A DNA stretch of 64,000 bases from Candidatus Eiseniibacteriota bacterium. GTDB lineage: Bacteria > Eisenbacteria > RBG-16-71-46 > CAVPCR01. The notes under the pieces were generated by a model that was not told the origin of the DNA, searched no databases, and worked only from the letters and a program-made list of their open reading frames with translations. A program made the position numbers and the translations under genes. Numbering within the stretch: the stretch's first letter is position 1; the number at the start of each line of letters is the position of its first letter. The DNA lies in assembly GCA_963823555.1 (NCBI GenBank), contig CAWGMA010000001.1, forward strand, positions 480,001 through 544,000, read 5' to 3'. Positions 19,663 through 40,674 of this stretch are shown here, piece by piece.

Positions 19663-22600
19663 ATGAACCAGCGACGATCGATCCTCCTTTCCATTCGAGA
19701 ACCGGCCGCGGTGCTGAGTTGTTTGCTCCTTACCTCCGTGATTGCCGCCGGTGTGGTGGCGGCTCTTCCGGCGAGCCTCCGCGAGGAGGTGCGCTTCGCG
19801 GCGAGCGATCTCCGGCTGGAGGAACAGGCGGACGGCACGGTGGTGGTGCGCTACCCGGGAGCGGTAGGGTCGCCGGCCGGGTCGCCGGATCTGCCGCTCG
19901 TGCCGGTGTGGATCGAGGTGCCATCGGGGATGCGGGTGGTGGGGGTCAAGAGCCGGGCGCAGGGGGTGGCGGAGCTGGGAGTGGTGCGGGTGCGACCGGT
20001 GGCGCCGGACGTGCGCGTGGGTGAGGCGGAGAAGGCGGCGGTGGCGGACGCGGAGGTGTACGGGAGCGCGGGGCCGGTGCCTGGGGAGTGGGCGGTGCTC
20101 GCGAGCGAGGGGACGCTCCGCGGTCACCAGCTGGCGGGGGTGCTGGTGTCGCCGGTCAGGTGGTCGCCCGGGACGGGTCAGCTCGAGCGGGCGAGCGTGG
20201 TCGAGGTCGAGCTCGTCCTCGAGCCGGGGCGGCCGGCAGGGATGCCGGAGGCGGTCGAGCGGCGGCGGGTGTCGGCGGCGATCGAGTCGAAGTTCGAGGC
20301 GGACGCATCGAAGTGGATCCGCGGGTTCACCCCGGCGGCGGCGACCGAGGGTGGGGGCGATGCGGGGAGCGGTCCGGCGGGTCCGGGGCCGTACCAGCCG
20401 ACGTTCCGGCCGACGACGGACGGGAGCGCGGTGGAGTACGTGGTGGTGACGTCGGCGGCGCTGGCGGGGGAGTTCCAGCGGCTGGCGGACTGGAAGACGC
20501 AGAAGGGGGTGCAGGCGGCGGTCAGGACGGTCGAGTGGATCGACCAGACGTACCCGAACGGGGTGGACCGCGCGGAGCGGGTCCGGTTCTTCATCCGTGA
20601 CGCGTACCAGAACTGGGGGACGATGTACGTGCTCCTCGGTGGCGACACCGACATCGTGCCGCCCCGCTATGCGCAGATGGTCCTCTTCGACGAGCGGATT
20701 CCCGCCGACTACTACTTCGCGTGTCTCGACGGCAACTGGAACTACGACGGAGATTCGCGCTTCGGCGAGTCGCTTTCCGGCGGTCCCCCTGGGGATCAGT
20801 GCGATCTGCACTTCGAAGTGACGGTGGGTCGGGTTCCGGCGTCGACTCCGGATCAGGTCGCCCGCTTCGTCGATAAGTTGCTCCTCTACGAACAGAACCC
20901 GCCGGTCGAAGCACGCTACCCCGCGTCGATCCTGGTGCTGGCTGAGCGCCTCTTCACCACGCTTCACGGAGCGGATATCGCGGAGGAGGCGCTGGCCCTG
21001 GTGCCGTCCTGGATCCGCAAGGTGCGTCTCTACGAGGAGTCGGCGAGCTACCCCGGATCCATCGAGCTCAACCGGCAGGTGGCGGTCGATTCGATCAACG
21101 CCGGATTCGGCATCGTGCACCATGTCGGCCACGGCTATCGCAACACCATGTCGCTGGGTAGTGGCACGATGTCGAACGGGGATGCGGACAACCTGGTGAA
21201 CGCGCCGCGGAACTCGGTGGTGTTCGCCATCAACTGCAGCTCCGCCTCGATCGACTTCAACTCGATCGGGGAGCGCTGGGTGAAGAACGCGAACGGCGGC
21301 TCGATCGCCTATCTGGGCACCTCCCGCCTGGCCTTCGTAACGGCCTCGCGCGCCTACCAGGGCGAATGGTATGCCACCGTCTTCCAGGATTCGACTCGAT
21401 CGCTCGGTCTCGCCACCGATGAATCGCGTGCCATCTTCATTCCGGCCGCCCAGTTTGATGGCGTTCAGCGCTGGAACTTGCTGGCGACGACGTTGCTGGG
21501 GGATCCGGAGGTGGATCTGTACACGAACGCGGTGGTGCCGCTCGTGGTGACGCATGCCTCGACGACACCGATCGGGGGGGCGCCCTTGTCGGTGACGGTG
21601 ACGGCCGGGGGGTCGCCGGTGGCGGGAGCGACGGTGACGTTGTGGAAGGCGGGGGAGAGCTATGTCAGGGGGGTGACGGGAGCGAACGGTCAGGCGCAGC
21701 TGGCGGTGGGGGCGAACACGCCGGGGGCGATGACGGTGACGGTGCACAAGAGCTACTACCGGCCGTACGTGGGGACGGTGACGGCGACGAGCGCGAGCGG
21801 GCCGTACGTGTACGTGACGGGTCTGGTGGTGGACGACGACAACGTGGGCCAGTCGAGCGGGGACGGGGACGGGCGGGCGGATGCGGGGGAGACGGTGGAG
21901 CTCCGGGTGACGCTCCGGAACGGGGGAGGGGGGCAGGTGACGGGGCTGGTGGGGACGATCTCGGAGAACGATCCGGAGAACGCGCTGACGATCGTCCAGG
22001 CGACGGTGAGTTACGGGACGATCGCTCCGGGGGGTAGCACGCAGGGCAGCGGGGCCTTCGTGGTGACGATCGCGGAGAACGCGCCGGTGGCGTACCAGCC
22101 GGTGCTGACGGTGGTGGCGGCGGGGACGCAGGGGACGTGGGTGGACCCGGTGGTGCTGCCGCTCCGGCGGCCGTACCTGGAGCACTGGGGTCACGTGGTG
22201 GACGACGCGTCGCCGCGAGGCAACGGGAACGGGGTGGTGGAGGCGGGGGAGGAGATCTACTACCGGGTGACGGTGAAGAACACGGGGCAGGACGGATCGG
22301 TGGGGCTCGCGGGATCGCTCCGGGCGCTCCAGGTGTCGGACCGGCAGCCGCACCCCGGGGTGACGGTGGGGGATGGGGCATCGAGCTTCGGGACGCTCAC
22401 GCCGGGTCAGCAGGTGGAGGGGGATCGGTTCGCGTTCACGCTGAGCAGCCTGACCGATCCGACGACGGTGCTCCTCGAGCTCACGCTGACCGACGCGCTC
22501 GGGGTGGCGGCCGTTCAGTATATCGATCTGACTTCACCCTCTCCGCCCGGCACCTTCTCCGCCTTTGGCTCGCCGGGGACGATTCTCTTGACCTGGGAGC

Positions 22601-24495
22601 GAGCGCAGGCAAGCGACATCCGTGGCTATGACGTGCTTCGTTCGATCTCGCCCGGGGGCCCGTTCCAGCGGATCAACGCCTACACGGTGGACGGGACGGC
22701 GGCGTACGAGGATCGTGGGCTGCCGGCGTTGACGCGGTATTACTACCAGGTGGTGTCGCGGGACTCATCGTACAACGCGTCGGTGCCGTCGGCTGTCTTC
22801 TCCGGGACCACCAACCCGCCCGCGGCCGCCGGCTGGCCCCAGGAGCTGGCCCAGCAGAGCTCCTCCTCTGCCGTCATCGCCGATATCGACGGCGGCGCGC
22901 ACATCGAGCTCCTCTGCGGCTCCGATATGATGTATGCCTGGCACGGAGACGGCACCGAAGTCGTCGATGGCGATGATGACTCGCGCACCAACGGGCCCTT
23001 CTCCCTCCACGGGTGGAGCACGGATTCGTTCGGGTTCGCGTCCACCCCCGCCGTCGGCGATGTGGACGGCGACGGCGACCTCGAGGTCGCCAGTGTCGGG
23101 TTCACCTCCGATTCTCTCTTCGTGTGGCAGGGTAACGGACAGCTGTTCCCCGGCTGGCCCAAGTGGGTCATGGATGACCTCAACTGGGGATCGGTGGTGC
23201 TTGCCGATCTGGACCGGGATGGCGACCTGGAGATGATCGTCTGGGCTGCCAATGGCGGTCGACTCTTCGCCTGGCATCACACCGGACAGGAAGTGGTCGA
23301 CGGCGACGCCAATCCCGCCACCGACGGCATCCTGGCTCGTGTCCTCGGCACATCCTTCAACTACGGATCAGCCGCCGTCGGCAATCTCGACCAGGATCCC
23401 GAGCTCGAGATCGTGGCCCCCGTCAACTTCTCCCAGGATGACACGGGTCGCGTATACGCTTTCAACATCGACGGCAGCATGGTAGCAGGATGGCCCTTCA
23501 CGACCGGAAGCGGCACTCCCTCCGAGGTCAGCTCCTCCCCGGTCATCGCTGATCTCGACGGCGATGGAGACGAGGAGGTCATCTTCGCAGCCGAGCGCGA
23601 TTACGGTCGCCTCTACGTCCTCAATGGCAACGGCACCGTGGCCACGGGATGGCCGCAAAACGTGATCGCGCTCTCTGCGGATGCGCGACTGCCATCACCC
23701 GCGGTGGGCGACGTGGATGCCGATGGCGCGCTCGAGATCGTCTACGCCGATACCGAAGGCAAGCTCTTCGTGTTCGAGCGCAATGGCGCCCTGCATCCCG
23801 GATTTCCCCTCTGGTACTATCCCGATCCGCCAGGCGAGGCGACGCAGTCGACCCCGGTGCTCGGTGATATCGACGGGGATCCCGAACTGGAGATCGTGTT
23901 CGGAGACGAGTCGGGTGTGGTGCGTGGCTACAACGCCGATGGCTCGTTGGTCGCCGGGTTCCCCATCCGGCTCACTGGAGAGGTGCGCTCCTCGCCTGCG
24001 CTCTGGGACCTGGATCGCGACGGGCTCCTGGAGATGGCGGTCGTCGGGTTCGATTCCCAAGTCTACGTGTGGGATCTCACTGCCGAGTTCAACCCGCAGC
24101 GGTTGCCGTGGCCCTTCTTCCGCCACGACACGCGGAATACCGGGCGCTTCGTGACCGCGGTGCAGCCGATCGGTATCGCCGAGCCGGCAGCTGCTCCTGA
24201 GGTTGCCAGCGCCGCATTCCATGGCGCTCACCCCAATCCGTTCAATCCAACGACGACCCTCGGATTCGATGTGCCGGGCGAGACCGGTGGCGCTCAGATG
24301 GTGACGCTGGCCATCTACGACGTCGGCGGCCGCCTCTTGCGGCAGTTGATCGATGGACCGATCGCGACCGGATCCCATGCGGTCGAATGGGACGGTCGGA
24401 CGGTCGCCGGAGCTCAGGTGAGCTCGGGGGTCTATTTCGCCCACATCACGATCGGCGACTTTGTTGCCACCCGGAAGCTCGTCGTCGTGCGCTGA
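19663..24495 (+). CDS. C25 cysteine peptidase / FG-GAP / CTD protein, copy 3
   Basis: Signal peptide, HHVGHG, AINCSS, LLGDP, FG-GAP repeats, PNPFNP CTD. Confidence 0.9.
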   Translation: MNQRRSILLSIREPAAVLSCLLLTSVIAAGVVAALPASLREEVRFAASDLRLEEQADGTVVVRYPGAVGSPAGSPDLPLVPVWIEVPSGMRVVGVKSRAQGVAELGVVRVRPVAPDVRVGEAEKAAVADAEVYGSAGPVPGEWAVLASEGTLRGHQLAGVLVSPVRWSPGTGQLERASVVEVELVLEPGRPAGMPEAVERRRVSAAIESKFEADASKWIRGFTPAAATEGGGDAGSGPAGPGPYQPTFRPTTDGSAVEYVVVTSAALAGEFQRLADWKTQKGVQAAVRTVEWIDQTYPNGVDRAERVRFFIRDAYQNWGTMYVLLGGDTDIVPPRYAQMVLFDERIPADYYFACLDGNWNYDGDSRFGESLSGGPPGDQCDLHFEVTVGRVPASTPDQVARFVDKLLLYEQNPPVEARYPASILVLAERLFTTLHGADIAEEALALVPSWIRKVRLYEESASYPGSIELNRQVAVDSINAGFGIVHHVGHGYRNTMSLGSGTMSNGDADNLVNAPRNSVVFAINCSSASIDFNSIGERWVKNANGGSIAYLGTSRLAFVTASRAYQGEWYATVFQDSTRSLGLATDESRAIFIPAAQFDGVQRWNLLATTLLGDPEVDLYTNAVVPLVVTHASTTPIGGAPLSVTVTAGGSPVAGATVTLWKAGESYVRGVTGANGQAQLAVGANTPGAMTVTVHKSYYRPYVGTVTATSASGPYVYVTGLVVDDDNVGQSSGDGDGRADAGETVELRVTLRNGGGGQVTGLVGTISENDPENALTIVQATVSYGTIAPGGSTQGSGAFVVTIAENAPVAYQPVLTVVAAGTQGTWVDPVVLPLRRPYLEHWGHVVDDASPRGNGNGVVEAGEEIYYRVTVKNTGQDGSVGLAGSLRALQVSDRQPHPGVTVGDGASSFGTLTPGQQVEGDRFAFTLSSLTDPTTVLLELTLTDALGVAAVQYIDLTSPSPPGTFSAFGSPGTILLTWERAQASDIRGYDVLRSISPGGPFQRINAYTVDGTAAYEDRGLPALTRYYYQVVSRDSSYNASVPSAVFSGTTNPPAAAGWPQELAQQSSSSAVIADIDGGAHIELLCGSDMMYAWHGDGTEVVDGDDDSRTNGPFSLHGWSTDSFGFASTPAVGDVDGDGDLEVASVGFTSDSLFVWQGNGQLFPGWPKWVMDDLNWGSVVLADLDRDGDLEMIVWAANGGRLFAWHHTGQEVVDGDANPATDGILARVLGTSFNYGSAAVGNLDQDPELEIVAPVNFSQDDTGRVYAFNIDGSMVAGWPFTTGSGTPSEVSSSPVIADLDGDGDEEVIFAAERDYGRLYVLNGNGTVATGWPQNVIALSADARLPSPAVGDVDADGALEIVYADTEGKLFVFERNGALHPGFPLWYYPDPPGEATQSTPVLGDIDGDPELEIVFGDESGVVRGYNADGSLVAGFPIRLTGEVRSSPALWDLDRDGLLEMAVVGFDSQVYVWDLTAEFNPQRLPWPFFRHDTRNTGRFVTAVQPIGIAEPAAAPEVASAAFHGAHPNPFNPTTTLGFDVPGETGGAQMVTLAIYDVGGRLLRQLIDGPIATGSHAVEWDGRTVAGAQVSSGVYFAHITIGDFVATRKLVVVR
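19768..20670 (+). repeat. Near-identical block A, copy 1 (propeptide to start of catalytic domain)
   Basis: Reads almost base-for-base as 24621-25517 and 29614-30502; boundaries approximate. Confidence 0.9.
21484..22510 (+). repeat. Near-identical block B, copy 1 (end of catalytic domain plus Ig-like stalk)
   Basis: Matches 26334-27360 and 31313-32339. The ORF track shows near-identical shadow ORFs at 21642/26492/31471 (131 aa) and 21665/26515/31494 (238 aa). Confidence 0.92.
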
Positions 24496-24545
24496 GGTCC
24501 AATCATGACGAAGTCCCTGCAACAGCGAAACTCTGGAGTCGACTG

Positions 24546-27500
24546 ATGATGAACCGCTGCCACGGCATGCCGCTCTTGATCCTGATGCTCTTGGTATCCG
24601 TCGGCGCCGCCCACTCGAGCCCGGCGAGCCTCCGCGAGGAGGTGCGCTTCGCGGCGGGCGATCTCCGGCTGGAGGAACAGGCGGACGGCACGGTGGTGGT
24701 GCGCTACCCGGGAGCGGTAGGGTCGCCGGCCGGGTCGCCGGATCTGCCGCTCGTGCCGGTGTGGATCGAGGTGCCATCGGGGATGCGGGTGGTGGGGGTC
24801 AAGAGCCGGGCCCAGGGGGTGGCGGAGCTGGGAGTGGTGCGGGTGCGGCCGGTGGCGCCGGACGTGCGCGTGGGTGAGGCGGAGAAGGCGGCGGTGGCGG
24901 ACGCGGAGGTGTACGGGAGCGCGGGGCCGGTGCCCGGGGAGTGGGCCCGGCTCGGGAGCGAGGGGACGCTCCGCGGTCACCAGCTGGCGGGGGTGCTGGT
25001 GTCGCCGGTCAGGTGGTCGCCGGGGACGGGTCAGCTCGAGCGGGCGAGCGTGGTCGAGGTCGAGCTCGTCCTCGAGCCGGGAGCGGTAACTTCGGGTGTC
25101 GTCGAGCGGCGGCGGGTGTCGGCGGCGATCGAGTCGAAGTTCGAGGCGGACGCATCGAAGTGGATCCGCGGGTTCACCCCGGCGGCGGCGACCGAGGGTG
25201 GGGGCGATGCGGGGAGCGGTCCGGCGGGTCCGGGGCCGTACCAGCCGACGTTCCGGCCGACGACGGACGGGAGCGCGGTGGAGTACGTGGTGGTGACGTC
25301 GGCGGCGCTGGCGGGGGAGTTCCAGCGGCTGGCGGACTGGAAGACGCAGAAGGGGGTGCAGGCGGCGGTCAGGACGGTCGAGTGGATCGACCAGACGTAC
25401 CCGAACGGGGTGGATCGGGCGGAGCGGGTCCGGTTCTTCATCCGTGACGCGTACCAGAACTGGGGGACGATGTTCGTGCTCCTCGGTGGCGACACCGATA
25501 TCGTGCCGCCCCGCTATATCGAGAGTTCCTACTACGGCCAGGAGTCGATTCCCGCCGACTACTACTACGCGTGTCTCGACGGCAACTGGAACTACGACGG
25601 AGATTCGCGCTTCGGTGAAGCGCGATTCTATGCCGTGCAGTCCGATTCAGTGGACTTCCATTTCGACGTCTCGGTCGGCCGGGCGCCGGTTTCGACGCTG
25701 ACCGAGGCGGATACTTTCGTCGACAAGACACTCCTCTACGAGCAGAACCCACCCATCCTGGCGCGCTATCCGGCGTCGATCCTGGTGCTGGCTGAGCGCC
25801 TGTTCCCGAGCACCCATGGTGCCGACATCGCGGAGGAGGCGCTGGCCCTGGTGCCGTCCTGGATCCGCAAGGTGCGTCTCTACGAGGAGTCGGCGAGCTA
25901 CCCTGGATCCATCGAGCTAAACCGGCAGGTGGCGGTCGATTCGATCAACGCCGGATTCGGCATCGTGCACCACGTCGGCCACGGCTACCGCAACACGATG
26001 TCGGTGGGCGCGGGAACGCTCAACAATGCCGACTCCGATGCGCTCATGAACGCACCGAAGAACTCGGTGGTGTTCGCCATCAACTGCAGCTCCGCCTCGA
26101 TCGATTTCAATTCGATCGGGGAGCGCTGGGTGAAGAACGCGAACGGCGGCTCGATCGCCTATCTGGGCACCTCCCGCCTGGCCTTCATCGCTGCCTCCGA
26201 GGCGTATCAAAACGCCTGGTACTCGACCGTCTTCCAGGATTCGGTGCGTTCGATCGGGACGGTCTCCAACCTGGGCCGCATGGCCCTCTATCCCAACGCG
26301 GAGTATGAGTCGGCGAACCGCTGGAATCTGATGGCGACGACGTTGCTGGGGGATCCGGAGGTGGATCTGTACACGAACGCGGTGGTGCCGCTCGTGGTGA
26401 CGCATGCGTCGACGACACCGATCGGGGGGGCGCCCTTGTCGGTGACGGTGACGGCCGGGGGGTCGCCGGTGGCGGGAGCGACGGTGACGTTGTGGAAGAG
26501 CGGGGAGAGCTATGTCAGGGGGGTGACGGGAGCGAACGGTCAGGCGCAGCTGGCGGTGGGGGCGAACACGCCGGGGGCGATGACGGTGACGGTGCACAAG
26601 AGCTACTACCGGCCGTACGTGGGGACGGTGACGGCGACGAGCGCGAGCGGGCCGTACGTGTACGTGACGGGTCTGGTGGTGGACGACGACAACGTGGGCC
26701 AGTCGAGCGGGGACGGGGACGGGCGGGCGGATGCGGGGGAGACGGTGGAGCTCCGGGTGACGCTCCGGAACGGGGGAGGGGGGCAGGTGACGGGGCTGGT
26801 GGGGACGATCTCGGAGAACGATCCGGAGAACGCGCTGACGATCGTCCAGGCGACGGTGAGTTACGGGACGATCGCTCCGGGGGGTAGCACGCAGGGCAGC
26901 GGGGCCTTCGTGGTGACGATCGCGGAGAACGCGCCGGTGGCGTACCAGCCGGTGCTGACGGTGGTGGCGGCGGGGACGCAGGGGACGTGGGTGGACCCGG
27001 TGGTGCTGCCGCTCCGGCGGCCGTACCTGGAGCACTGGGGTCACGTGGTGGACGACGCGTCGCCGCGAGGCAACGGGAACGGGGTGGTGGAGGCGGGGGA
27101 GGAGATCTACTACCGGGTGACGGTGAAGAACACGGGGCAGGACGGATCGGTGGGGCTCGCGGGATCGCTCCGGGCGCTCCGGGTGTCGGACCGGCAGCCG
27201 CACCCCGGGGTGACGGTGGGGGATGGGGCATCGAGCTTCGGGACGCTCGTGCCGGGTCAGCAGGTGCAGGGGGATCGGTTCGCGTTCACGCTGGGGGGAG
27301 CGACCGACCCGACGACGGTGCTGCTCGAGCTCACGCTGACCGACGCGCTCGGGGTGGCGGACTTGGAGCTGCTGGACGTGCTGCATCCGGACTCGCCGGA
27401 CACGCTGAAGGCTTTCGGTTCGCCGTCCTCGATCCGCTTGACGTGGAACCGCTCGGCGGCGACGGATGCGAAGGGTTACGACGTGTACCGGTCGAGCTCG

Positions 27501-29345
27501 CCCGGGGGGCCGTTCCAGCGGATCAACGCCTACACGGTGGACGGGACGGCGGCGTACGAGGATCGTGGGCTGCCGGCGTTGACGCGGTATTACTACCAGG
27601 TGGTGTCGCGGGATTCGTCGTACAACGCGTCGGTGCCGTCGGTGGTGATCTCGGGGACCACCAACCCGCCCTACACCCCCGGCTGGCCGATCGAGCTCGC
27701 CCAGCAGAGCGCATCCTCCGCCGTCATCGCCGACATCGATGGTGGCTCACACACCGAGATCATGTGCGGCGGCGACGTGCAATACGCCTGGCATGGGGAT
27801 GGCACCGAGGTCGTCGACGGCGACGACGATGATCGGACCAACGGCCCCTTCTCCCTCTACGGCCGGCGGACCACGACCTCCGGCTTCGCTGCCACGCCGG
27901 CGATCGGCAACATCGACCTCGCCGGTCGTCTGGAGGTGGTCAACATCGGCTTCACAGCCGACTCGCTCTACGTATGGAACAATGTCGGACAGCTGATGAG
28001 TGGTTGGCCCAAGTGGGTCATGGGCGACTTCAACTGGGCCTCGGTCATGCTTCCGGATCTCGATCTCGACGGAGATCTCGAGATCGTGGCCTGGGCGGCG
28101 AATGGCGGTCGCCTCTTCGCCTGGCATCACAACGGGCAGGAAGTGGTCGACGGCGACGCCAATCCCGCCACCGATGGCATCCTGGCCCGGATCCTCGGCG
28201 CGTCGTTCAACTACTCGAGCCCCGCGGTCGCCAATCTGGATGCCGATCCTCAGCTCGAGATCCTCGTTGCGGTCAATCGGTCCACGGACAATACGGGAGG
28301 CGTCTATGCCTTCAACACGAACGGGACCCCGGTTCCCGGCTGGCCCTTCCTGACCGGCAGCGCGCAGAATCCATCGGAGGTCAGCTCATCCCTGGCGGTG
28401 GCCGACCTCGACGGTGACGGAGACGAGGAGATCATCTTCGCAGCCGAGCGCGACGGCGGCCGCGTCTATGTGCTGAATGGCAACGGGACCGTGGTTCCGG
28501 GATGGCCGAAGGCTGCTGCTGCCTATACCCAGGACGCGCGCCTGCCATCTCCCGTGGTCGCGGATCTAGATGACGACACCTCCCTCGATGTCGTCTTTCC
28601 CGATACCGACGGCAACCTCTGGGCCTGGAACCGCAACGGCGCGGTCCTGCCCGGATATCCGGTCGTCTACTATCCCAACGCCCAGACGCAGACGACGCAG
28701 TCGACACCGGCCGTGGGAGACGTCGACGGCGATCTCGACCCCGAGGTCATCTTCGGTGACGAGGCCGGTTTCGTTCACGGCTACAACGGTGACGGCACAC
28801 TGGCGGCGGGCTTCCCCATCCAGGTGGGGGGCGAGGTCCGTTCGACTCCGGCGATCTGGGATCTGGACCGGGACAACCGGGTCGAGGTCGTCGCCGTCTG
28901 CTACGACTCCAATGTCTATTCCTGGGATCTCCCGGGACGCTTCAATCCACAGCGCATCCCGTGGCCATTCTTCCGCCATGACATCCGCAACACGGGACGC
29001 TTCCTCACTTCGGTTCAGATCGGAATCGACGAGCCGGATGCGGTGCCGGTGCCGGGCGTGGCCGCTTTCCACCTGGCGCGACCCAACCCGTTCAATCCGG
29101 CGACCACGCTGGCCTTCGACGTGCCTGGCAAGGCAGGCGGCGCGCGACCGGTGACCCTCGACATCATCGATGTCTCGGGACGTCTGGTGCGTCGCCTCCT
29201 CGACGGCCCCGTCGAGACCGGTTCCCATGCCCTGGTCTGGGATGGGCGCCAGTCGAGCGGAGGCATGTCTCCCTCCGGCGTTTACTTCGCCAGGATCGCG
29301 ATCGGCAGCTTCACCGCCACCCAGAAGCTCACGCTCGTGCGATGA
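24546..29345 (+). CDS. C25 cysteine peptidase / FG-GAP / CTD protein, copy 4
   Basis: Start MMNRC after GGAG, signal peptide, HHVGHG, AINCSS, FG-GAP repeats, PNPFNP CTD. Confidence 0.9.
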   Translation: MMNRCHGMPLLILMLLVSVGAAHSSPASLREEVRFAAGDLRLEEQADGTVVVRYPGAVGSPAGSPDLPLVPVWIEVPSGMRVVGVKSRAQGVAELGVVRVRPVAPDVRVGEAEKAAVADAEVYGSAGPVPGEWARLGSEGTLRGHQLAGVLVSPVRWSPGTGQLERASVVEVELVLEPGAVTSGVVERRRVSAAIESKFEADASKWIRGFTPAAATEGGGDAGSGPAGPGPYQPTFRPTTDGSAVEYVVVTSAALAGEFQRLADWKTQKGVQAAVRTVEWIDQTYPNGVDRAERVRFFIRDAYQNWGTMFVLLGGDTDIVPPRYIESSYYGQESIPADYYYACLDGNWNYDGDSRFGEARFYAVQSDSVDFHFDVSVGRAPVSTLTEADTFVDKTLLYEQNPPILARYPASILVLAERLFPSTHGADIAEEALALVPSWIRKVRLYEESASYPGSIELNRQVAVDSINAGFGIVHHVGHGYRNTMSVGAGTLNNADSDALMNAPKNSVVFAINCSSASIDFNSIGERWVKNANGGSIAYLGTSRLAFIAASEAYQNAWYSTVFQDSVRSIGTVSNLGRMALYPNAEYESANRWNLMATTLLGDPEVDLYTNAVVPLVVTHASTTPIGGAPLSVTVTAGGSPVAGATVTLWKSGESYVRGVTGANGQAQLAVGANTPGAMTVTVHKSYYRPYVGTVTATSASGPYVYVTGLVVDDDNVGQSSGDGDGRADAGETVELRVTLRNGGGGQVTGLVGTISENDPENALTIVQATVSYGTIAPGGSTQGSGAFVVTIAENAPVAYQPVLTVVAAGTQGTWVDPVVLPLRRPYLEHWGHVVDDASPRGNGNGVVEAGEEIYYRVTVKNTGQDGSVGLAGSLRALRVSDRQPHPGVTVGDGASSFGTLVPGQQVQGDRFAFTLGGATDPTTVLLELTLTDALGVADLELLDVLHPDSPDTLKAFGSPSSIRLTWNRSAATDAKGYDVYRSSSPGGPFQRINAYTVDGTAAYEDRGLPALTRYYYQVVSRDSSYNASVPSVVISGTTNPPYTPGWPIELAQQSASSAVIADIDGGSHTEIMCGGDVQYAWHGDGTEVVDGDDDDRTNGPFSLYGRRTTTSGFAATPAIGNIDLAGRLEVVNIGFTADSLYVWNNVGQLMSGWPKWVMGDFNWASVMLPDLDLDGDLEIVAWAANGGRLFAWHHNGQEVVDGDANPATDGILARILGASFNYSSPAVANLDADPQLEILVAVNRSTDNTGGVYAFNTNGTPVPGWPFLTGSAQNPSEVSSSLAVADLDGDGDEEIIFAAERDGGRVYVLNGNGTVVPGWPKAAAAYTQDARLPSPVVADLDDDTSLDVVFPDTDGNLWAWNRNGAVLPGYPVVYYPNAQTQTTQSTPAVGDVDGDLDPEVIFGDEAGFVHGYNGDGTLAAGFPIQVGGEVRSTPAIWDLDRDNRVEVVAVCYDSNVYSWDLPGRFNPQRIPWPFFRHDIRNTGRFLTSVQIGIDEPDAVPVPGVAAFHLARPNPFNPATTLAFDVPGKAGGARPVTLDIIDVSGRLVRRLLDGPVETGSHALVWDGRQSSGGMSPSGVYFARIAIGSFTATQKLTLVR
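24621..25517 (+). repeat. Near-identical block A, copy 2
   Basis: Direct repeat of 19768-20670 with short substituted patches (ARLG, AVTSGV). Confidence 0.9.
26334..27360 (+). repeat. Near-identical block B, copy 2
   Basis: Direct repeat of 21484-22510 (offset 4850). Confidence 0.92.
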
Positions 29346-29488
29346 GGCGACGCCGCGATCGGGGTCCAGTCAGTATTTGCAGTCGGTCCTCGGGGCCGAC
29401 CGCGGGCTACGAGAACAGGGCCGGGAGAGACCGGCCGGTCATCGCGCACCGCCTGCCATGAACGGCGATGCGTTGAAGGAGCACAGAC

Positions 29489-32400
29489 ATGAAGGGGCGC
29501 CGTAAGCCGCGCACGGGTTGCAATCGCTCGATTCTCACTCTGCTGCTCTGTCTCTCTGCGCTGGGATCCTCCGCCTCCATGGAGGCGATCGAGGCCGAGG
29601 CGGCGACAAGGGTCGAGGAGGTGCGCTTCGCGGCGAGCGATCTCCGGCTGGAGGAACAGGCGGACGGCACGGTGGTGGTGCGCTACCCGGGAGCGGTAGG
29701 GTCGCCGGCCGGGTCGCCGGATCTGCCGCTCGTGCCGGTGTGGATCGAGGTGCCATCGGGGATGCGGGTGGTGGGGGTCAAGAGCCGGGCCCAGGGGGTG
29801 GCGGAGCTGGGAGTGGTGCGGGTGCGGCCGGTGGCGCCGGACGTGCGCGTGAGCGACGAAGAGAAGGCGGCGGTGGCGGACGCGGAGGTGTACGGGAGCG
29901 CGGGGCCGGTGCCTGGGGAGTGGGCGGTGCTCGCGAGCGAGGGGACGCTCCGCGGTCACCAGCTGGCGGGGGTGCTGGTGTCGCCGGTCAGGTGGTCGCC
30001 GGGGACGGGACGGCTCGAGCGGGCGAGCGTGGTCGAGGTCGAGCTCGTCCTCGAGCCGGGGCGGCCGGCAGGGATGCCGGAGGCGGTCGAGCGGCGGCGG
30101 GTGTCGGCGGCGATCGAGTCGAAGTTCGAGGCGGACGCATCGAAGTGGATCCGCGGGTTCACCCCGGCGGCGGCGACCGAGGGTGGGGGCGATGCGGGGA
30201 GCGGTCCGGCGGGTCCGGGGCCGTACCAGCCGACGTTCCGGCCGACGACGGACGGGAGCGCGGTGGAGTACGTGGTGGTGACGTCGGCGGCGCTGGCGGG
30301 GGAGTTCCAGCGGCTGGCGGACTGGAAGACGCAGAAGGGGGTGCAGGCGGCGGTCAGGACGGTCGAGTGGATCGACCAGATGTACCCGAACGGGGTGGAT
30401 CGGGCGGAGCGGGTCCGGTTCTTCATCCGTGACGCGTACCAGAACTGGGGGACGCGCTACGTGCTCCTCGGTGGCGACACCGATATCGTACCCCCGCGCT
30501 ACGCGCAGATGGTCGTCTACAATGCCGAGCAGATTCCCGCTGACTACTACTACGCGTGCCTCGACGGGAACTGGAACGCCGATGGGGATTCGCGCTTCGG
30601 AGAATCGCTCTTCGGCGGTGGGGATGAGTGCGACTTCTATGCCGAGGTGAACGTCGGGCGGGCGCCGGTGTCGACGCTGGCCGAGGCCGATACCTTCGTC
30701 GACAAGACGCTCCTCTACGAGCAGAACCCGCCGCTCTCCTCCCGTTACCCGGCCTCCTTCCTCGCCCTCGCCGAGCGCCTCTTCACCGATATTCACGGTG
30801 CCGACATCGCCGAGGAGGCGATTGACTTCCTGCCGCCATGGATGCGCGTCGTCCGGCTGTACGAGGAGTCGGCGAGCTATCCGGGGTCGATCGAGCTGAC
30901 GAAGGACGCAGCGATCGACTCGATCGACGCCGGGTTCGGGATCGTGCACCATGTCGGCCACGGCTATCGCAACACCATGTCGCTGGGTAGTGGCACGATG
31001 TCGAACGGGGATGCGGACAACCTGGTGAACGCGCCGCGGAACTCGGTGGTGTTCGCCATCAACTGCAGCTCCGCCTCGATCGACTTCAACTCGATCGGGG
31101 AGCGCTGGGTGAAGAACCCGAACGGCGGCTCGATCGCCTATCTGGGCACCTCCCGTCTCTCCTTCGTGGCGGCTGCCGAGACCTACCAGGGCGAGTGGTA
31201 TGCCCGGGTGTGGCAGGACTCGGTGCGAAGCCTCGGTCCTGTCACTGATTTTGCCCGCCAGTCCCTCATCCCGGGTTCCGACTACGACTCGGCGAACCGC
31301 TGGAACTTGCTGGCGACGACGTTGCTGGGGGATCCGGAGGTGGATCTGTACACGAACGCGGTGGTGCCGCTCGTGGTGACGCATGCCTCGACGACACCGA
31401 TCGGGGGCTCGCCCTTGTCGGTGACGGTGACGGCCGGGGGGTCGCCGGTGGCGGGAGCGACGGTGACGTTGTGGAAGGCGGGGGAGAGCTATGTCAGGGG
31501 GGTGACGGGAGCGAACGGTCAGGCGCAGCTGGCGGTGGGGGCGAACACGCCGGGGGCGATGACGGTGACGGTGCACAAGAGCTACTACCGGCCGTACGTG
31601 GGGACGGTGACGGCGACGAGCGCGAGCGGGCCGTACGTGTACGTGACGGGTCTGGTGGTGGACGACGACAACGTGGGCCAGTCGAGCGGGGACGGGGACG
31701 GGCGGGCGGATGCGGGGGAGACGGTGGAGCTCCGGGTGACGCTCCGGAACGGGGGAGGGGGGCAGGTGACGGGGCTGGTGGGGACGATCTCGGAGAACGA
31801 TCCGGAGAACGCGCTGACGATCGTCCAGGCGACGGTGAGTTACGGGACGATCGCTCCGGGGGGTAGCACGCAGGGCAGTGGGGCCTTCGTGGTGACGATC
31901 GCGGAGAACGCGCCGGTGGCGTACCAGCCGGTGCTGACGGTGGTGGCGGCGGGGACGCAGGGGACGTGGGTGGACCCGGTGGTGCTGCCGCTCCGGCGGC
32001 CGTACCTGGAGCACTGGGGTCACGTGGTGGACGACGCGTCGCCGCGAGGCAACGGGAACGGGGTGGTGGAGGCGGGGGAGGAGATCTACTACCGGGTGAC
32101 GGTGAAGAACACGGGGCAGGACGGATCGGTGGGGCTCGCGGGAGCGCTCCGGGCGCTCCAGGTGTCGGACCGGCAGCCGCACCCGGGGGTGACGGTGGGG
32201 GACGGGGCATCGAGCTTCGGGACGCTCGCGCCGGGTCAGCAGGTGGAGGGAGATCGGTTCGCGTTCACGCTGAGCGGACAGGCGGATCCGACGACGGTGC
32301 TCCTCGAGCTCACGCTCACCGACGCGCTCGGGGTGGCGGCCGTCGAGCTGCTGGACGTGCTGCATCCGGACTCGCCGGACACGGTGAAGGCATTCGGTTC

Positions 32401-34312
32401 GCCGTCCTCGATCCGCTTGACGTGGAACCGGGCGGAGGCGGGGGACGCGAAGGGGTACGACGTCCTGCGGTCGAGCGCGCCGGGAGGACCGTTCCAGCGG
32501 ATCAACGCCTACACGGTGGACGGGACGGCGGCGTACGAGGACCCGGGTCTGCCGGCGCTGACGCGGTACTACTACCAGGTGGTGGCGCGGGACTCGTCCT
32601 ACAACGCATCGGTGCCGTCGGCGGTGATCTCGGGCACCACCAACCCGCCCAACACCCCCGGCTGGCCGATCGAGATCGCCCAGCAGACCCAGTCCTCGGT
32701 CGTCCTCTCCAACACCGCCGGCGGATCCGACTACGAGATCTTCACCGCGGCGGACTTCCAGTACGGCTGGCACGCCAACGGGACCGAGATCCTCGATGGC
32801 GACGACGATCCGCGCACCAATGGTCCCTACTCCCGCTACGGCTACAATTCAATCAAGGGATTCTCTGCCACCACCGCGATCGGGGATCTGGACGACGACG
32901 GCGACTTCGAGATCGTCAATGTCGGCTGGACGGCAGACACGCTCTACGTCTGGGACCACCAGGGTCAGCTCGCTCCGGGCTGGCCCAAGTGGATCATGGA
33001 TGACTTCAACTGGCCGTCCCCCGTCCTCTTCGACCTCGATGGCGACAGCGATCTCGAGATCATCCTCTGGGCGGGGAACGGCGGGCGCCTCTTCGCCTGG
33101 CATCACGATGGGACCGAGGTCGCCGACGGCGACAACAATCCCGCGACGGACGGCATCCTCTACCGCGTGCTCGGCACCTCCTACAACTACTCGAGCCCGG
33201 CGGTGGGGGATATCGACGGCGATCTCCGCCCGGAGATCGTGTTCGCCGTGAACCTGTCCTCGGACATGAGCGGCATGATCTACGCCGTGAACGACAACGG
33301 GACGCTCCTGTGGTCGCGCGCCACGGGGAACGCGAGCGAGCCGTCGCAGATCACGTCGTCACCGGCCATCACTCAACTCGATGGCGCCTTCACCAACGAT
33401 GTCATCTTCGCCGCCGACCGCAACGGGGGCCGCATCTATGCGCTCAATGGCCTCACCGGTGCCGATCTCCCGGGATGGCCGCGCTCGGCTCCGAGCGCCT
33501 CCGGCCAGTCGCGCGTGGGCTCGCCCGCGCTCGGGGATCTCGACAGCGATGGCTACCTCGATATCGCCTACCCGGCCTCGGATGGGCGGCTCTTCGCCTT
33601 CAAGCGCGACGGCACGCCGGTTTCGGGTTTCCCCGTGGTCTATGCCGCCGGCCTCACCGAGGCCACGCAGTCCACACCATCCATCGCCGACATCGACGGC
33701 GACGGCAGACTCGAGATCCTCTTCGGCGACGAGACCGGGAAGCTCCACGGGTACAATCATGACGGCACCCTCGTTGCCGGCTTCCCCATCCAGCTCGGGG
33801 GCGAGGTGCGCTCGACCCCGGTCGTGTGGGACATCGACCAGGACACGATGGTCGAGGTCGCCGTCGCCGGCTGGGACGGCCAGATCCACATCTGGGATCT
33901 GCCCGGCGAGTTCAACCCCCTGCGGACCCCCTGGCCCTTCTTCCGCCACGACGTGCGCAATACCGGATGGACGCAGACGGCGCCCCTGGCCGTCGGCATC
34001 GCCGAGCCGGACGCCGCACCCCAGCCGCCCACAGCACGTGTCTGGCCGGCGCATCCCAATCCCTTCAATCCCGCGACCACGATCGCCTTCGACGTTTCCG
34101 GACAGGGGGCGGTGCCGGTGGCGATCGGCGTGTATGATGTCGCTGGACGGCTCGTGCGCCAGCTCATCGATGCCCCGGTCGAGGCGGGCCATCATGCTCT
34201 CGTCTGGGATGGGCGCGGCCGGAACGGCACGGTGCTCGGATCAGGGATCTACTTCGTCCGGGTCGAGATCGGCAACCACGCGTTCAACCAGAAGGTGACG
34301 CTGATCAAGTGA
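29489..34312 (+). CDS. C25 cysteine peptidase / FG-GAP / CTD protein, copy 5
   Basis: AAGGAG RBS, signal peptide, HHVGHG, AINCSS, FG-GAP repeats, PNPFNP CTD. Confidence 0.9.
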   Translation: MKGRRKPRTGCNRSILTLLLCLSALGSSASMEAIEAEAATRVEEVRFAASDLRLEEQADGTVVVRYPGAVGSPAGSPDLPLVPVWIEVPSGMRVVGVKSRAQGVAELGVVRVRPVAPDVRVSDEEKAAVADAEVYGSAGPVPGEWAVLASEGTLRGHQLAGVLVSPVRWSPGTGRLERASVVEVELVLEPGRPAGMPEAVERRRVSAAIESKFEADASKWIRGFTPAAATEGGGDAGSGPAGPGPYQPTFRPTTDGSAVEYVVVTSAALAGEFQRLADWKTQKGVQAAVRTVEWIDQMYPNGVDRAERVRFFIRDAYQNWGTRYVLLGGDTDIVPPRYAQMVVYNAEQIPADYYYACLDGNWNADGDSRFGESLFGGGDECDFYAEVNVGRAPVSTLAEADTFVDKTLLYEQNPPLSSRYPASFLALAERLFTDIHGADIAEEAIDFLPPWMRVVRLYEESASYPGSIELTKDAAIDSIDAGFGIVHHVGHGYRNTMSLGSGTMSNGDADNLVNAPRNSVVFAINCSSASIDFNSIGERWVKNPNGGSIAYLGTSRLSFVAAAETYQGEWYARVWQDSVRSLGPVTDFARQSLIPGSDYDSANRWNLLATTLLGDPEVDLYTNAVVPLVVTHASTTPIGGSPLSVTVTAGGSPVAGATVTLWKAGESYVRGVTGANGQAQLAVGANTPGAMTVTVHKSYYRPYVGTVTATSASGPYVYVTGLVVDDDNVGQSSGDGDGRADAGETVELRVTLRNGGGGQVTGLVGTISENDPENALTIVQATVSYGTIAPGGSTQGSGAFVVTIAENAPVAYQPVLTVVAAGTQGTWVDPVVLPLRRPYLEHWGHVVDDASPRGNGNGVVEAGEEIYYRVTVKNTGQDGSVGLAGALRALQVSDRQPHPGVTVGDGASSFGTLAPGQQVEGDRFAFTLSGQADPTTVLLELTLTDALGVAAVELLDVLHPDSPDTVKAFGSPSSIRLTWNRAEAGDAKGYDVLRSSAPGGPFQRINAYTVDGTAAYEDPGLPALTRYYYQVVARDSSYNASVPSAVISGTTNPPNTPGWPIEIAQQTQSSVVLSNTAGGSDYEIFTAADFQYGWHANGTEILDGDDDPRTNGPYSRYGYNSIKGFSATTAIGDLDDDGDFEIVNVGWTADTLYVWDHQGQLAPGWPKWIMDDFNWPSPVLFDLDGDSDLEIILWAGNGGRLFAWHHDGTEVADGDNNPATDGILYRVLGTSYNYSSPAVGDIDGDLRPEIVFAVNLSSDMSGMIYAVNDNGTLLWSRATGNASEPSQITSSPAITQLDGAFTNDVIFAADRNGGRIYALNGLTGADLPGWPRSAPSASGQSRVGSPALGDLDSDGYLDIAYPASDGRLFAFKRDGTPVSGFPVVYAAGLTEATQSTPSIADIDGDGRLEILFGDETGKLHGYNHDGTLVAGFPIQLGGEVRSTPVVWDIDQDTMVEVAVAGWDGQIHIWDLPGEFNPLRTPWPFFRHDVRNTGWTQTAPLAVGIAEPDAAPQPPTARVWPAHPNPFNPATTIAFDVSGQGAVPVAIGVYDVAGRLVRQLIDAPVEAGHHALVWDGRGRNGTVLGSGIYFVRVEIGNHAFNQKVTLIK
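29614..30502 (+). repeat. Near-identical block A, copy 3
   Basis: Direct repeat of the block A sequence. Confidence 0.9.
31313..32339 (+). repeat. Near-identical block B, copy 3
   Basis: Direct repeat of the block B sequence (offset 4979 from copy 2). Confidence 0.92.
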
Positions 34313-37300
34313 TGGCTCGTCGAATCCGCACGACGGCGGCCTGCATCGCCGGGTTCATGGCCCTCGCCTCGGTGGCCAGGGCCGGACCGCATTCCACTGA
34401 GACGATCCTCGATTTCCCGGCCGATCGTCTCGTGCTCTCCGTCGAATCCGGTGAGACGCGCATCGACTACCCGGGCGGGTTTCGCGCCGCACCCGAGGGT
34501 GCTCCCGATCTGCCGCGCATCGCCGTGTTGCTGGAGGGCCCGCCGGCGTCGACCGTGATCGCGGTGGAAGTCGATGTGCTCGAGGTCGAGGAGCTGGGAG
34601 TGCACCGGATCGCGAGGGCCGCGGCCGATCGGTCGGCTGACGGTCAGATCGCGGTCGCCCCGCCCGCGGCCCCATCTTCGCTCGCCGACGGCTTCTTCCC
34701 CGCGGCGATCGCCACCTTCGAAGGTTCCGGAGCCATGCGCGGGCGCCATCTCTTCCAGTTCGTCGTGAACCCGGTGCGCTGGAACCCGGAGAGCGGCCAG
34801 CTCGTGCTCCTGACCCGTATCCGCCTGCGCTACGAGCTCGGCCCATCATCCCAGGAAATCCTGCCGCGCCACCGCGTCATGCCCGAGACCGAGGTCAAGT
34901 TCGGGCGCGGGCTGGCGCACGTGCTCGGCGCCGGCGGGCGTGCTGCCGGAGCGGATGCGGGCGGTGCGGACGCGGTCCTCCCCGACGGCGCGACGCCGGC
35001 GGGTCCCGGCCCCTACCAGCCCACCTTCCGCCCGACGACGGACGGCAGCGCGGTCGAGTACGTCGTCATCACCTCGGAGGCCCTGGCCGGCGAGTTCGAG
35101 CCGCTCGTCCAGTGGAAGACGGAGAAGGGCGCTCAGGCCGTGGTGCGCACGGTCGAATGGATCGATGCGACCTACCCCAATGGCGTCGATCGGGCCGAGC
35201 GGGTGCGCTTCTTCATCCGGGACGCCTACCAGAACTGGGGCACGCTCTTTGTCCTCCTGGGCGGCGACACCGATGTGATCCCGGTTCGGTATGCTGAAGC
35301 CAACATCCTGGGCGGCGAATCGATTCCCACCGATTACTACTACATGTGTCTGGAGGGCAACTGGAACGCCGACGGGGACGCCCGTTTCGGGGAGGCCTTC
35401 GAGGGGCCGGAGAACCCGGGGGACAACGTGGATCTGATGCCCGAGGTCTATGCCGGGCGCGCCCCGGTCTCGACCCCGGAGCAGGCAGCGGTCTTCGTCG
35501 CCAAGACCATCGCCTACGATCGCAATCCCGCGACAGGCAACGGCGGCTACCCGGCGTCGATCCTCTATCTCGCCGAGCGTCTCTTCACCAACATCGACGG
35601 CGCCCTGATCGCGGAGGAGGCGAATGCGCTCGTGCCGCCCTGGTTCAAGCGGGTCAAGCTCTACGAGGAGTACGCGAGCTGGCCGCAGGCGTTGCCGGAG
35701 ACCTACTCGGCGGTCATCGATTCGATCAACAACGGCTTCGGCATCGTGTATCACATCGGCCACGGCTACCGCAACACGATGTCGATCGGCGACGGCGTGC
35801 TCATCAACGCCGATGCCGATGCCCTGGTGAACGGCGCTCGTCAGTCCGTTGTCTTCGCCATCAACTGCAGCGCAGCCTCGATCGACTTCAATGCGATCGG
35901 AGAGCGGTTCGTCAAGAATCCGGATGGCGGCTCCATCGCCTACATCGGCACCTCCCGGCAGGCCTTCGTCAGCGCATCGCGCGAGTACCAGGAGGAGTGG
36001 TTCTCGGCGATCTTCGCCAGCCCCGACTCGTTGCGTAGCCTGGGAGAGGTCTGCGCCGTGTCGCGTCTCCCCTTCGTGCCGTTCTCCGGTTACGAGAGCA
36101 GCTTTCGCTGGACGCTGTTCGCTGTCACGTTGCTCGGGGATCCGGAGGTCGACCTCCACACCCATGGCATCGCGCCGATCGCGGTGAATCATGCGCCGAC
36201 GATCGCGCTGGGTGCGGGGTCCTTCGCGCTGGCGGTGACGAGCGCGGGCGCGCCGCTTGCTGGCGCCCAGGTGACCCTGTGGAAAGAGGGCCAGGCCTAC
36301 GCCCGCGGTGTCACCGATGCCGGAGGGGTGGCCGCTCTCGCCTTCGCGCCGGAGACAACGGGTCCCGCCACGCTCACCGTATCGCGGCCGGGATATGCCG
36401 TGTATCAGGCCACCGTGACGGTGACCGCGGCGAGCGGGCCGTATCTCCACGTGCAATCGGTCCTCGTCGATGACGACATCATCCCGCCCTCGAGCGGCGA
36501 CGGCGACGGGCGCGCCGACGCCGGCGAGACGGTGGAGATCGCGGTGACGCTCAAGAACGCGGGTGGCGCGGGCGCCACCGGGGTCAACGCCGTGCTGCGC
36601 GTGGCCGATGCCGGTGGGTTCGTGACCCTCGTCGATTCGACGGTGAGCTACATCGCGATCGGGGCCGGCGGCTCATCGAGCGGAGCAGGGCGCTTCGTCA
36701 TCGCCATCGCGCCCGATGCGCCTTATGCCCTCCAGCCCGTCTTCACGCTCCGCGCCGCCACCGATCAGGGCATCTTCTCGGATGTCTTCGTCCTGCCGGT
36801 ACGGCGCTCCTTTCTCGAGCACGTGACCCACGTGATCGATGACGCCGTTCCGCGCGGGAACGGCAACGGCGTGATCGAAGCCGGAGAGGAGATCTGGTAC
36901 TCGATCTCGCTCAGGAATTCGGGGCAGGATGCAGCCGAGGCGGTGGCGGCCACGCTGGCGGCGGTCAAGGCCCGTACGCTCGACCCCGAACCCCTGGTCA
37001 CGGTGAGCGACGGGAACTCGAGCTTCGGGAGCGTCGCGGTGGGGGCCACGCTGACCGGGGACCGCTTCGCATTCGCCCTCGATCCGGGGCTCGATCCGGA
37101 CTCGCTTCGTCTCGCGGTGTCCTATGACGACGCCGACGGACCGGTTCGCACCGAGTACCTCGATGTCGTACCGCCAGGCGCGGTGGATAGCCTCGTCGTC
37201 TTCGGGGCGCCCAGCTCGCTCCTCATCAAGTGGAAGCGGCCAGCGGATCCCGATGTGCTCGGCTACGAGATCTTCCGCGCTCCGAGTCCGGGCGGGCCCT

Positions 37301-40457: not shown

Positions 40458-40531
40458 TGGGGAGTCGTCCAGTGGTAGGACACGTGGCTCTGGACCACGG
40501 TACCGGGGTTCGAATCCTCGCTCCCCAGCCA
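40458..40531 (+). tRNA. tRNA-Gln (anticodon CTG)
   Basis: Acceptor TGGGGAG/CTCCCCA, anticodon arm CGTGG-CTCTGGA-CCACG, T-loop GTTCGAATC, encoded CCA. Confidence 0.95.
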
Positions 40532-40599
40532 GATTTTGCTGCTCGGAGTCATGGACGCTTCGCGGCAGCGCGGATCATCGAGTCAGGTCCTGACGGAGT

Positions 40600-40674
40600 G
40601 GCGCTATCGTCTAGGGGTTAGGACGGATGGTTCTCAGCCATCAAACCGGGGTTCGAATCCCCGTAGCGCTACCA
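40600..40674 (+). tRNA. tRNA-Glu (anticodon CTC)
   Basis: Acceptor GGCGCTA/TAGCGCT, anticodon arm GATGG-TTCTCAG-CCATC, GTTCGAATC, encoded CCA. Confidence 0.95.

Follow-up and report, generated by a model that had tools for sequence, protein, structure and literature searches.

Background

GRINS, described in 2021, are duplicated coding regions longer than 500 bp and more than 80% identical that undergo gene conversion and carry an intense GC skew, which is strongest at third codon positions, has abrupt edges and goes with an enrichment of Gly and Val (parts of the text of PMC8256042). Their GC and TA skews are usually positively correlated, anticorrelated cases exist, and the authors left cause, origin and maintenance open; mismatch, MutS, NucS and tuf go unmentioned in that text (PMC8256042). 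Here we describe a related element in a stretch of 64,000 nucleotides (the window, G000:C1:480001-544000) from a Candidatus Eiseniibacteriota bacterium. In a tandem array of six C25 peptidase genes, three share near-identical blocks whose synonymous third positions have moved to G.

The conversion of duplicated tuf genes is another close precedent. In Salmonella, mismatch repair makes tuf conversion 200-1000-fold rarer, and conversion favours the mismatches that are repaired badly (Paulsson et al. 2017, PMC5485169, in part). The concerted evolution of tufA and tufB (PMC5485169; Wang and Chen 2018, PMC6053082) is the same process as the one considered here; however, the sections of these papers covered describe no directional compositional outcome (PMC5485169) and lack the words 'skew', 'strand' and 'biased' (PMC6053082). 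As to mismatch recognition, MutS is blind to C:C; the substrates of NucS are G:G, G:T and T:T, and it overlooks C:C, A:A and A:C (PMC11551744, in part). No paper that connects MutS or NucS with GRINS or with the skew of tuf was found in a search that covered few subscription journals and perhaps not all GRINS supplementary tables.

The vls cassettes of Borrelia also undergo gene conversion and show high G + C, GC skew and coding-strand G-runs, which have been read as functional, as G-quadruplexes (G4) (parts of PMC8001052). In contrast, the G-runs at the present locus equal the codon-shuffled expectation, and the sign of the skew follows replication. In GC-biased gene conversion and in the Hex marker efficiency of pneumococcal transformation, fixation is biased through unequal handling of heteroduplex mismatches. 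Both resemble our case in this respect, and G + C at third positions (GC3) also rises in the repeats here; both are, however, strand-symmetric and make no choice between G and C on one strand.

G-ending blocks in the C25 peptidase array

Three of the six genes, c3 (19663..24495), c4 (24546..29345) and c5 (29489..34312), all on the plus strand, were found to have two blocks in common at 97-100% identity, beside flanking segments at 55-75%. Block A comprises the propeptide and the start of the C25 domain, and block B the end of the C25 domain and an Ig-like linker. The skew was expressed as fG, that is G/(G + C) at the third positions of fourfold codon boxes. In blocks A and B of c3-c5 fG was 0.82-0.90, against 0.45-0.46 expected under a codon-context model (z +9.6 to +15.1). 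Block A had G at 144 of 170 sites in c3 (19815..20631; also common to a seventh paralog, c7), 141 of 169 in c4 (24668..25478) and 144 of 169 in c5 (29647..30454), and block B at 195 of 214 in c3 (21483..22470), 260 of 288 in c4 (26300..27656) and 250 of 281 in c5 (31312..32632). A further plus-strand block of c3, B' (22686..22791), with 22 G of 22, lies past a gap (22473-22680) in which c3 has diverged from c4 and c5 and carries no skew. All eight fourfold codon boxes move to G (log2 odds +1.1 to +4.2), and T is not raised (T at NAY codons 0.10-0.19 versus 0.31). Genome-wide, 10 of 9089 non-overlapping 60-site windows had an fG of at least 0.9 (mean 0.43, standard deviation 0.085).

The same alignment columns in c1, c2 and c6 gave an fG of 0.41-0.54 (z -1.2 to +2.0). 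Protein constraint was rejected as the cause, in agreement with a preliminary description of this DNA. Block B of c7 is a closer control; at about 72% DNA identity its fG was 0.38-0.68 per window. At conserved codons of block B, c7-to-c5 comparison counted 45 C>G versus 5 G>C (18 versus 35 outside the blocks), and comparison with the outgroup c6 counted 45 versus 3 (19 versus 25 outside). Block B encodes 47 Gly and 47 Val, versus 37-41 and 30-37 in c1, c6 and c7.

The codons that the preliminary description had quoted for copies 3-5 and 6 are exact. It had drawn one skewed span from 19768 to 32640, where we found instead two blocks per gene and the c3 gap, and it had taken the rest of the window to be strongly C-ending, which is instead near-balanced (about 0.45); the N-terminal part of the propeller is C-richer than background (z -5.1, -2.3 and -2.3). 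Its claim that shared sequence is skewed was borne out for blocks A and B but not for a plus-strand tract of c3 (20863..21402) matching c4 at 25707-26246 (mean identity 0.92/0.87), which has no skew and may be read as a product of recent or rare conversion.

The mosaic of near-identical blocks beside diverged segments, with partners changing along the genes, suggests that the blocks were homogenised by gene conversion between copies. Contigs of public runs matched the blocks and the copy-specific junctions (for example, 721 nt at 31109-31829 differed at 5 positions and 316 nt at 19673-19988 at 2), one of these runs being possibly the source sample.

Edges of the blocks

A two-state hidden Markov model placed the ends of the skew at 22791/22797, 27656/27659 and 32632/32635, in line with the sharp boundaries reported earlier at about 22800, 27657 and 32636. 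That report had put the switch at the start of the propeller; the position holds, but the homology runs on for about 17 codons past it. Relative to the leading strand, the skew sets in where homology starts on the 5′ side and ends about 13-17 codons short of the 3′ edge. The final 52 nt of c4/c5 homology in c4 (27657..27708, plus strand) have 2 mismatches and hold 2 G and 8 C, and c5 has the counterpart of this edge at 32636..32687 on the same strand. Such an unskewed 3′ edge was seen at block A and at block B and, mirrored, in a lagging-strand pair (11G/1C, 95G/24C, 5G/5C). In tuf of 20 genomes of the phylum fG was 0.75-0.95 until codon 380 and then 0.17, with the copies matching to the stop codon, and the tuf genes of NucS lineages have the same unskewed tail (15G/40C). 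A reversal of the skew at the edge was considered and dropped, the 0.17 of the tuf tail being not clearly lower than the 0.24 of single-copy genes; we claim absence of skew only.

Comparison with GRINS

At the 80% threshold the blocks are 1020-1500 bp long, with a mean identity of 0.954-0.981 (by codon alignment, not the pipeline of the GRINS authors). The mean absolute GC skew in 150-nt windows, which exceeds 0.15 in GRINS, was 0.248-0.295 in six blocks and 0.08-0.10 outside. For TA skew, with the same limit of 0.15, the blocks gave 0.090-0.134 and non-duplicated windows 0.09-0.13; one sub-block reached 0.151 at the 95% threshold. The correlation of GC and TA skew in the six blocks was not positive (r = -0.02 to -0.65). 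The blocks are therefore like GRINS in length, identity, GC skew, abrupt edges, Gly/Val enrichment and, judging from the mosaic identity, probably gene conversion; they differ in lacking TA skew, in having one sign per replichore here, and in their setting, a lineage with MutS in which secreted protease genes and tuf carry them. Because the TA skew falls below the GRINS limit, the blocks are a G-only variant of GRINS and not a member.

Skew in other repeats and relation to replication

The assembly comprises 4.62 Mb in four contigs (67% G + C, 92.5% complete). A scan of 2805 genes gave, as top outliers after c3-c5, both tuf copies and then c7. The fG of tuf was 0.85 and 0.90, versus 0.44 in fusA, 0.45 in groEL and 0.43 in recA; ribosomal-protein and housekeeping reading frames near tuf were mostly at 0.25-0.59, and dnaK and atpD were at background. 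The preliminary description had proposed comparisons with other repeats of the genome and with single-copy genes, and both supported it, both tuf copies and repeat families being skewed and fusA, groEL and recA, unlike the blocks, remaining at background. The G skew is a genome-wide property of converting repeats, and it needs a near-identical partner. Of the two causes the preliminary description had offered, strand-biased conversion of repeated DNA is supported by this tie to near-identical partners, found here and in other genomes.

The skew minimum (C3:101769) adjoins dnaA (C3:94920), and the maximum, i.e. the terminus, is sharp (C1:1501489). At unique sites the leading strand had an fG of 0.449 and the lagging strand one of 0.405. 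The values for co-oriented repeats were 0.70 and 0.61 (leading) and 0.35 and 0.23 (lagging), and those for counter-oriented repeats 0.39/0.49. With duplicated contig ends masked in these comparisons, 27 repeat families were built automatically, 22 of them mainly co-oriented. On the leading strand 9 of 11 co-oriented families were positive (6 with z>2, none <-2), and on the lagging strand 9 of 11 were negative (4 with z<-2, 1 with z>2; p=0.002). Lagging examples were read as real secreted proteins, as at C1:27586-30402 (fG 0.14 in repeats, 0.46 outside) and in the pair C3:475182/477887 (0.23 versus 0.42). An HNH-like family on the leading strand is G-ending in all five copies (C1:466351, 1648587, 2028880 and 2282048; C2:612850), and another, on the lagging strand, is C-ending in all three (C3:345846, C4:667800, C2:268432). 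Thus the sign of the skew in this genome follows the leading strand and not transcription. The other cause offered earlier, selection for a G-rich non-template strand or R-loops, is contradicted by the lagging-strand repeats, which are C-ending on the non-template strand.

Skew and mismatch repair across genomes

MutS1 and MutL are present in this genome, and no NucS match was found. Among relatives in the phylum, 20 of 121 searched were picked for having both tuf copies on one contig, and tuf fG (0.56-0.91) was above that of neighbouring genes (0.41-0.50) in 20/20, while T did not move (pooled T at NAY codons 0.13 versus 0.14). The relatives' stretches around C25 genes and their diverged PKD arrays were neither homogenised nor skewed, and the homogenised leading-strand PKD arrays of genomes G007 and G084 were skewed (0.81 versus 0.49; 0.73 and 0.71 versus 0.50). 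A search for homogenised lagging-strand arrays of PKD domains in relatives (15 genomes searched, 20 loci fetched) found none.

The blind spots of MutS and NucS predict a G-only skew under MutS, a G + T skew under NucS and no skew where repair is missing; the NucS prediction was set down ahead of the test on NucS genomes. In a sample of 136 Actinomycetota there were 30 two-copy genomes, 13 with NucS, 9 with MutS and 8 with neither, and sequence was obtained for 13, 7 and 6 of these. Every one of the 13 NucS genomes showed a G skew (tuf fG 0.58-0.93 versus 0.24-0.45; the G343 stretch has no neighbour gene), and in 12/13 T at NAY-type codons was 0.15-0.73 versus 0.01-0.29; copy identity was checked in 9/13. 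Single-copy NucS genomes had an fG of 0.33-0.37 and T of 0.00-0.05, none of five being skewed. The six two-copy Actinomycetota with neither gene had no G skew (0.18-0.33 versus 0.43-0.52). The class of genome G125, in the same phylum (124 searched), provided 20 more two-copy genomes (L250-L289), with NucS in 0/20 and MutS, as MutS1, in 1/20. In 14 of them the tuf pairs are 98.8-100% identical, with an fG of 0.30-0.40 versus 0.40-0.49; the other six pairs, 85-90% identical, are no longer homogenising. G skew was thus seen in 0/6 and 0/14 pairs from genomes in which neither MutS nor NucS was found, i.e. in none of 20. The class of G121 (8 genomes) was left out. Across genomes, the type of skew follows the mismatch-repair system.

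For tuf across bacteria, 50 of 80 loci were checked for copy number and 41 passed a site-count filter; the value for single-match locus L103 was drawn from an unpublished genome (G142). The median difference between tuf and its neighbours was -0.02 for single-match (n=19) and +0.14 for two-match genomes (n=22), p=0.027. A refined test, which left out post hoc four doubtful single-match loci (L093, L103, L107 and L143; differences of +0.13 to +0.45) and three pairs less than 95% identical (L081, L086 and L129), gave p 0.0007 (15 versus 19), and the unrefined p=0.027 is the fair figure. The presence of MutS was uninformative as a discriminator among two-copy genomes, 38/40 of which carry it. A convergent tuf pair of Sphaerotilus mobilis (G141:C3; L170, L171), with copies 68 kb apart and 99.4% identical, has no skew; it was not used as support because the flanking genes left the leading strand unsettled.

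In the MutS-bearing actinobacterial clade (L293, L294, L297, L301, L306 and L308), A was enriched at fourfold sites of duplicated tuf relative to neighbouring genes (21-64 A per gene). Repair of T:T is weaker than that of A:A, which fits this enrichment. A shift to A under MutS is nevertheless not claimed, being missing in the present phylum (T/(A+T) 0.71 versus 0.67).

Genes of the array and state of the assembly

All six genes encode a Peptidase_C25 domain (gingipain-like; PF01364, PF08126), FG-GAP repeats forming a propeller, and a FlgD-Ig tail, over about 1600 codons apiece, and all pass the PF01364 gathering cut-off of 23 (206-229 bits). The diverged genes c1 (10024..14856), c2 (14864..19609) and c6 (34309..39129), all on the plus strand, carry no skew, and c7 lies on the minus strand at G000:C1:81146-86053. 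The reading frame of c4 opens at 24387, and its start is likely the Met at 24546, downstream of the end of c3. GHG and NCS motifs are present in c3-c6, and we take them to be the His-Cys pair of the C25 family, with a predicted catalytic role. Matches to PDB 5mun and 1cvr were weak, and an ESM Atlas cluster has the same architecture (score 0.99). C25 matches were found in 33/33 relatives; in the stretches fetched around their C25 genes (5 in G083 and 11 in other genomes) no homogenised, skewed sub-array was found, in contrast to the present locus.

Genes for tRNA-Gln(CTG) and tRNA-Glu(CTC) lie just past the array (window 40458-40674). Elsewhere, C3:411176-416348 (L008) holds several repeats of 400-650 bp at 93-99% identity with inverse-core/core motifs that resemble integron attC sites. 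In the assembly, frameshifts disrupt rpoB/rpoC and one tuf copy at its 3′ end (G000:C3:538366-551717), and two pairs of contig ends are duplicated (C1:1-8345 with C3:843900-852207; C2:713925-723326 with C4:1-9414).

Proposed mechanism and alternatives

It seems probable to us that heteroduplex arises between the donor and the leading-sense strand of the recipient, with mismatch repair vetoing each change it sees. Repeated conversion would keep the tracts identical and apply a bias, oriented by replication, at each differing base. The repaired copy would contribute its leading-sense strand, either where the lagging-strand template has a single-stranded gap or as the 3′ end of a collapsed fork, and this strand would pair with the opposite strand of the donor. 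Because RecO and AddAB-type nuclease domains are present in this genome, gap repair and break repair are both possible routes. A recipient C facing a donor G would form C:C, invisible to MutS, and the change would pass, while a recipient G facing a donor C would form G:G and be rejected or restored; over many rounds C would turn to G on the leading strand. NucS, acting on G:G, G:T and T:T, would protect recipient G and T and give the G + T skew of classical GRINS, and with no mismatch repair there would be no filter and no skew. In the final 50 nt or so, pairing or re-annealing would plausibly give no, or reversed, heteroduplex. The choice of pairing strand and the cause of this 3′-end escape are inferred.

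Several observations weigh against this account. The 3′-edge effect is missing in the HNH and IS families, and 5/11 leading co-oriented families stay at z<2. A lagging-strand transposase pair (C3:594150-595358 / 624141-625349), which we assign to an IS256-like family, is 99.5% identical and has an fG of 0.67 (z +8.3); recent insertion may possibly lie behind this pair, which departs most from the strand rule. Counter-oriented c7 is another exception to the strand rule, carrying block A of three leading-strand partners (z +10). A secreted FlgD-tailed protein (C3:531261-534326; L010) has a strong G-ending skew over residues ~130-300 (z 6.5), but its best match in the assembly is at 73%; a near-identical partner was possibly lost or left unassembled. 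The lagging-strand test rests on one genome. GC3 is raised in repeats on both strands, which C:C escape leaves unexplained, as it does the slight move to C in genomes without repair genes. In other phyla only 11/19 near-identical two-copy tuf pairs were more than 0.1 above their neighbours, with a MutS match in 18/19 of these genomes, so MutS is not sufficient; in the MutS-bearing actinobacterial clade only 3/7 were clearly skewed (fG 0.30-0.76 versus 0.44-0.51). Gene absence in metagenome-assembled genomes is soft, and because label changes on the tuf tree are few (NucS 3, 'neither' 4, MutS clade 1) the repair groups amount to a few independent contrasts and not to dozens. Finally, GRINS of Streptomyces can have both skew signs on one strand within 1 kb (parts of PMC8256042), which a pure replication rule would not produce.

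The GRINS authors suggested an advantage of the whole tract, in which a skewed tract would donate or pair better, through RecA preference or D-loop stability, with no mismatch filter. This is also biased conversion; it would account for the dependence on a near-identical partner, might be oriented by replication, and can draw on the skew that block A took into c7. We nevertheless think it unlikely: homogenised tuf pairs in which neither repair gene was found lack the G skew, the type of skew changes with the repair enzyme, and G clustering is not in excess. We give the same small credence to a mutational origin, in which error-prone repair synthesis or lesions in DNA left single-stranded by recombination make C>G (in some lineages C>T and A>G) on one strand, with conversion only spreading the product; an error-prone polymerase is proposed in the GRINS paper (PMC8256042, in part), and replication orientation and the same substitution excess would follow. 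Yet T is not raised in the blocks, contrary to leading-strand cytosine deamination, and loss of skew without repair genes would need a separate cause, since loss of repair should expose more errors.

Other readings have far less in their favour. Selection for a G-rich non-template strand, with R-loops or G4 priming recombination, has a counterpart in the role suggested for Borrelia vls (PMC8001052, in part), and the blocks and tuf are indeed G-rich on that strand, with more G4-like motifs than in the rest of the window (22 of 40 plus-strand motifs). It is very unlikely, however, as seven non-mobile lagging families are C-rich on the non-template strand (z -1.3 to -4.4), single-copy tuf, equally transcribed, is unskewed, and codon shuffling of the c4 blocks reproduces their 47 G-runs (47.7 +/- 2.6) and 8 G4-like motifs (7.7 +/- 1.3). 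Still less probable is that translation favours G-ending codons in genes with high expression or amplified dosage. In support of this, no gene is expressed more than tuf. Conversion can also spread optimal codons (PMC6053082, in part). Against it, background values were seen for ribosomal-protein genes, fusA, groEL, dnaK and atpD, lagging-strand repeats have the opposite sign, and the skew is missing from the final 17 codons of tuf, where the copies are identical. Least credible of all is that the blocks were acquired from another genome with a preference for G, or that they are artefacts of assembly or polishing. The assembly does contain indel errors (rpoB/rpoC and one tuf copy broken), and repeat identity could be inflated, but errors cannot favour synonymous G, public-run contigs (one run possibly from the source sample) match blocks and junctions, and the effect recurs in tuf of 20 relatives.

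Conclusions

Under the mismatch-veto mechanism, the skew is a by-product, a footprint of copying, and not an adaptation of the protease genes. Conversion would maintain one propeptide and one linker across the copies and leave the loops of the catalytic domain and the propeller to diverge, and a shared chassis with varied specificities would suit a secreted protease family. For GRINS, open since 2021, the locus offers a G-only form, a replication strand rule, an edge rule (on the leading strand, the skew ends about 50 nt short of the 3′ limit of homology) and a relation between skew type and repair system across genomes, and with them a testable cause. We suggest tentatively, as a possibility short of even chances, that prokaryotes have a general replication-polarised biased conversion whose direction is set by mismatch-repair blind spots (G under MutS, G + T under NucS, no drive under neither). 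It would cause GRINS and affect every gene that evolves in concert, tuf among them. It could also drive amino-acid changes to Gly and Val against selection and, through ordinary recombination between strains, add to the chromosome-wide G excess of the leading strand. If this is true, the silent-site and some of the amino-acid composition of duplicated genes would reflect drive and not selection, which would affect tuf-based codon-usage indices, tuf phylogenies and the reading of polyketide synthase (PKS) recombination hot spots.

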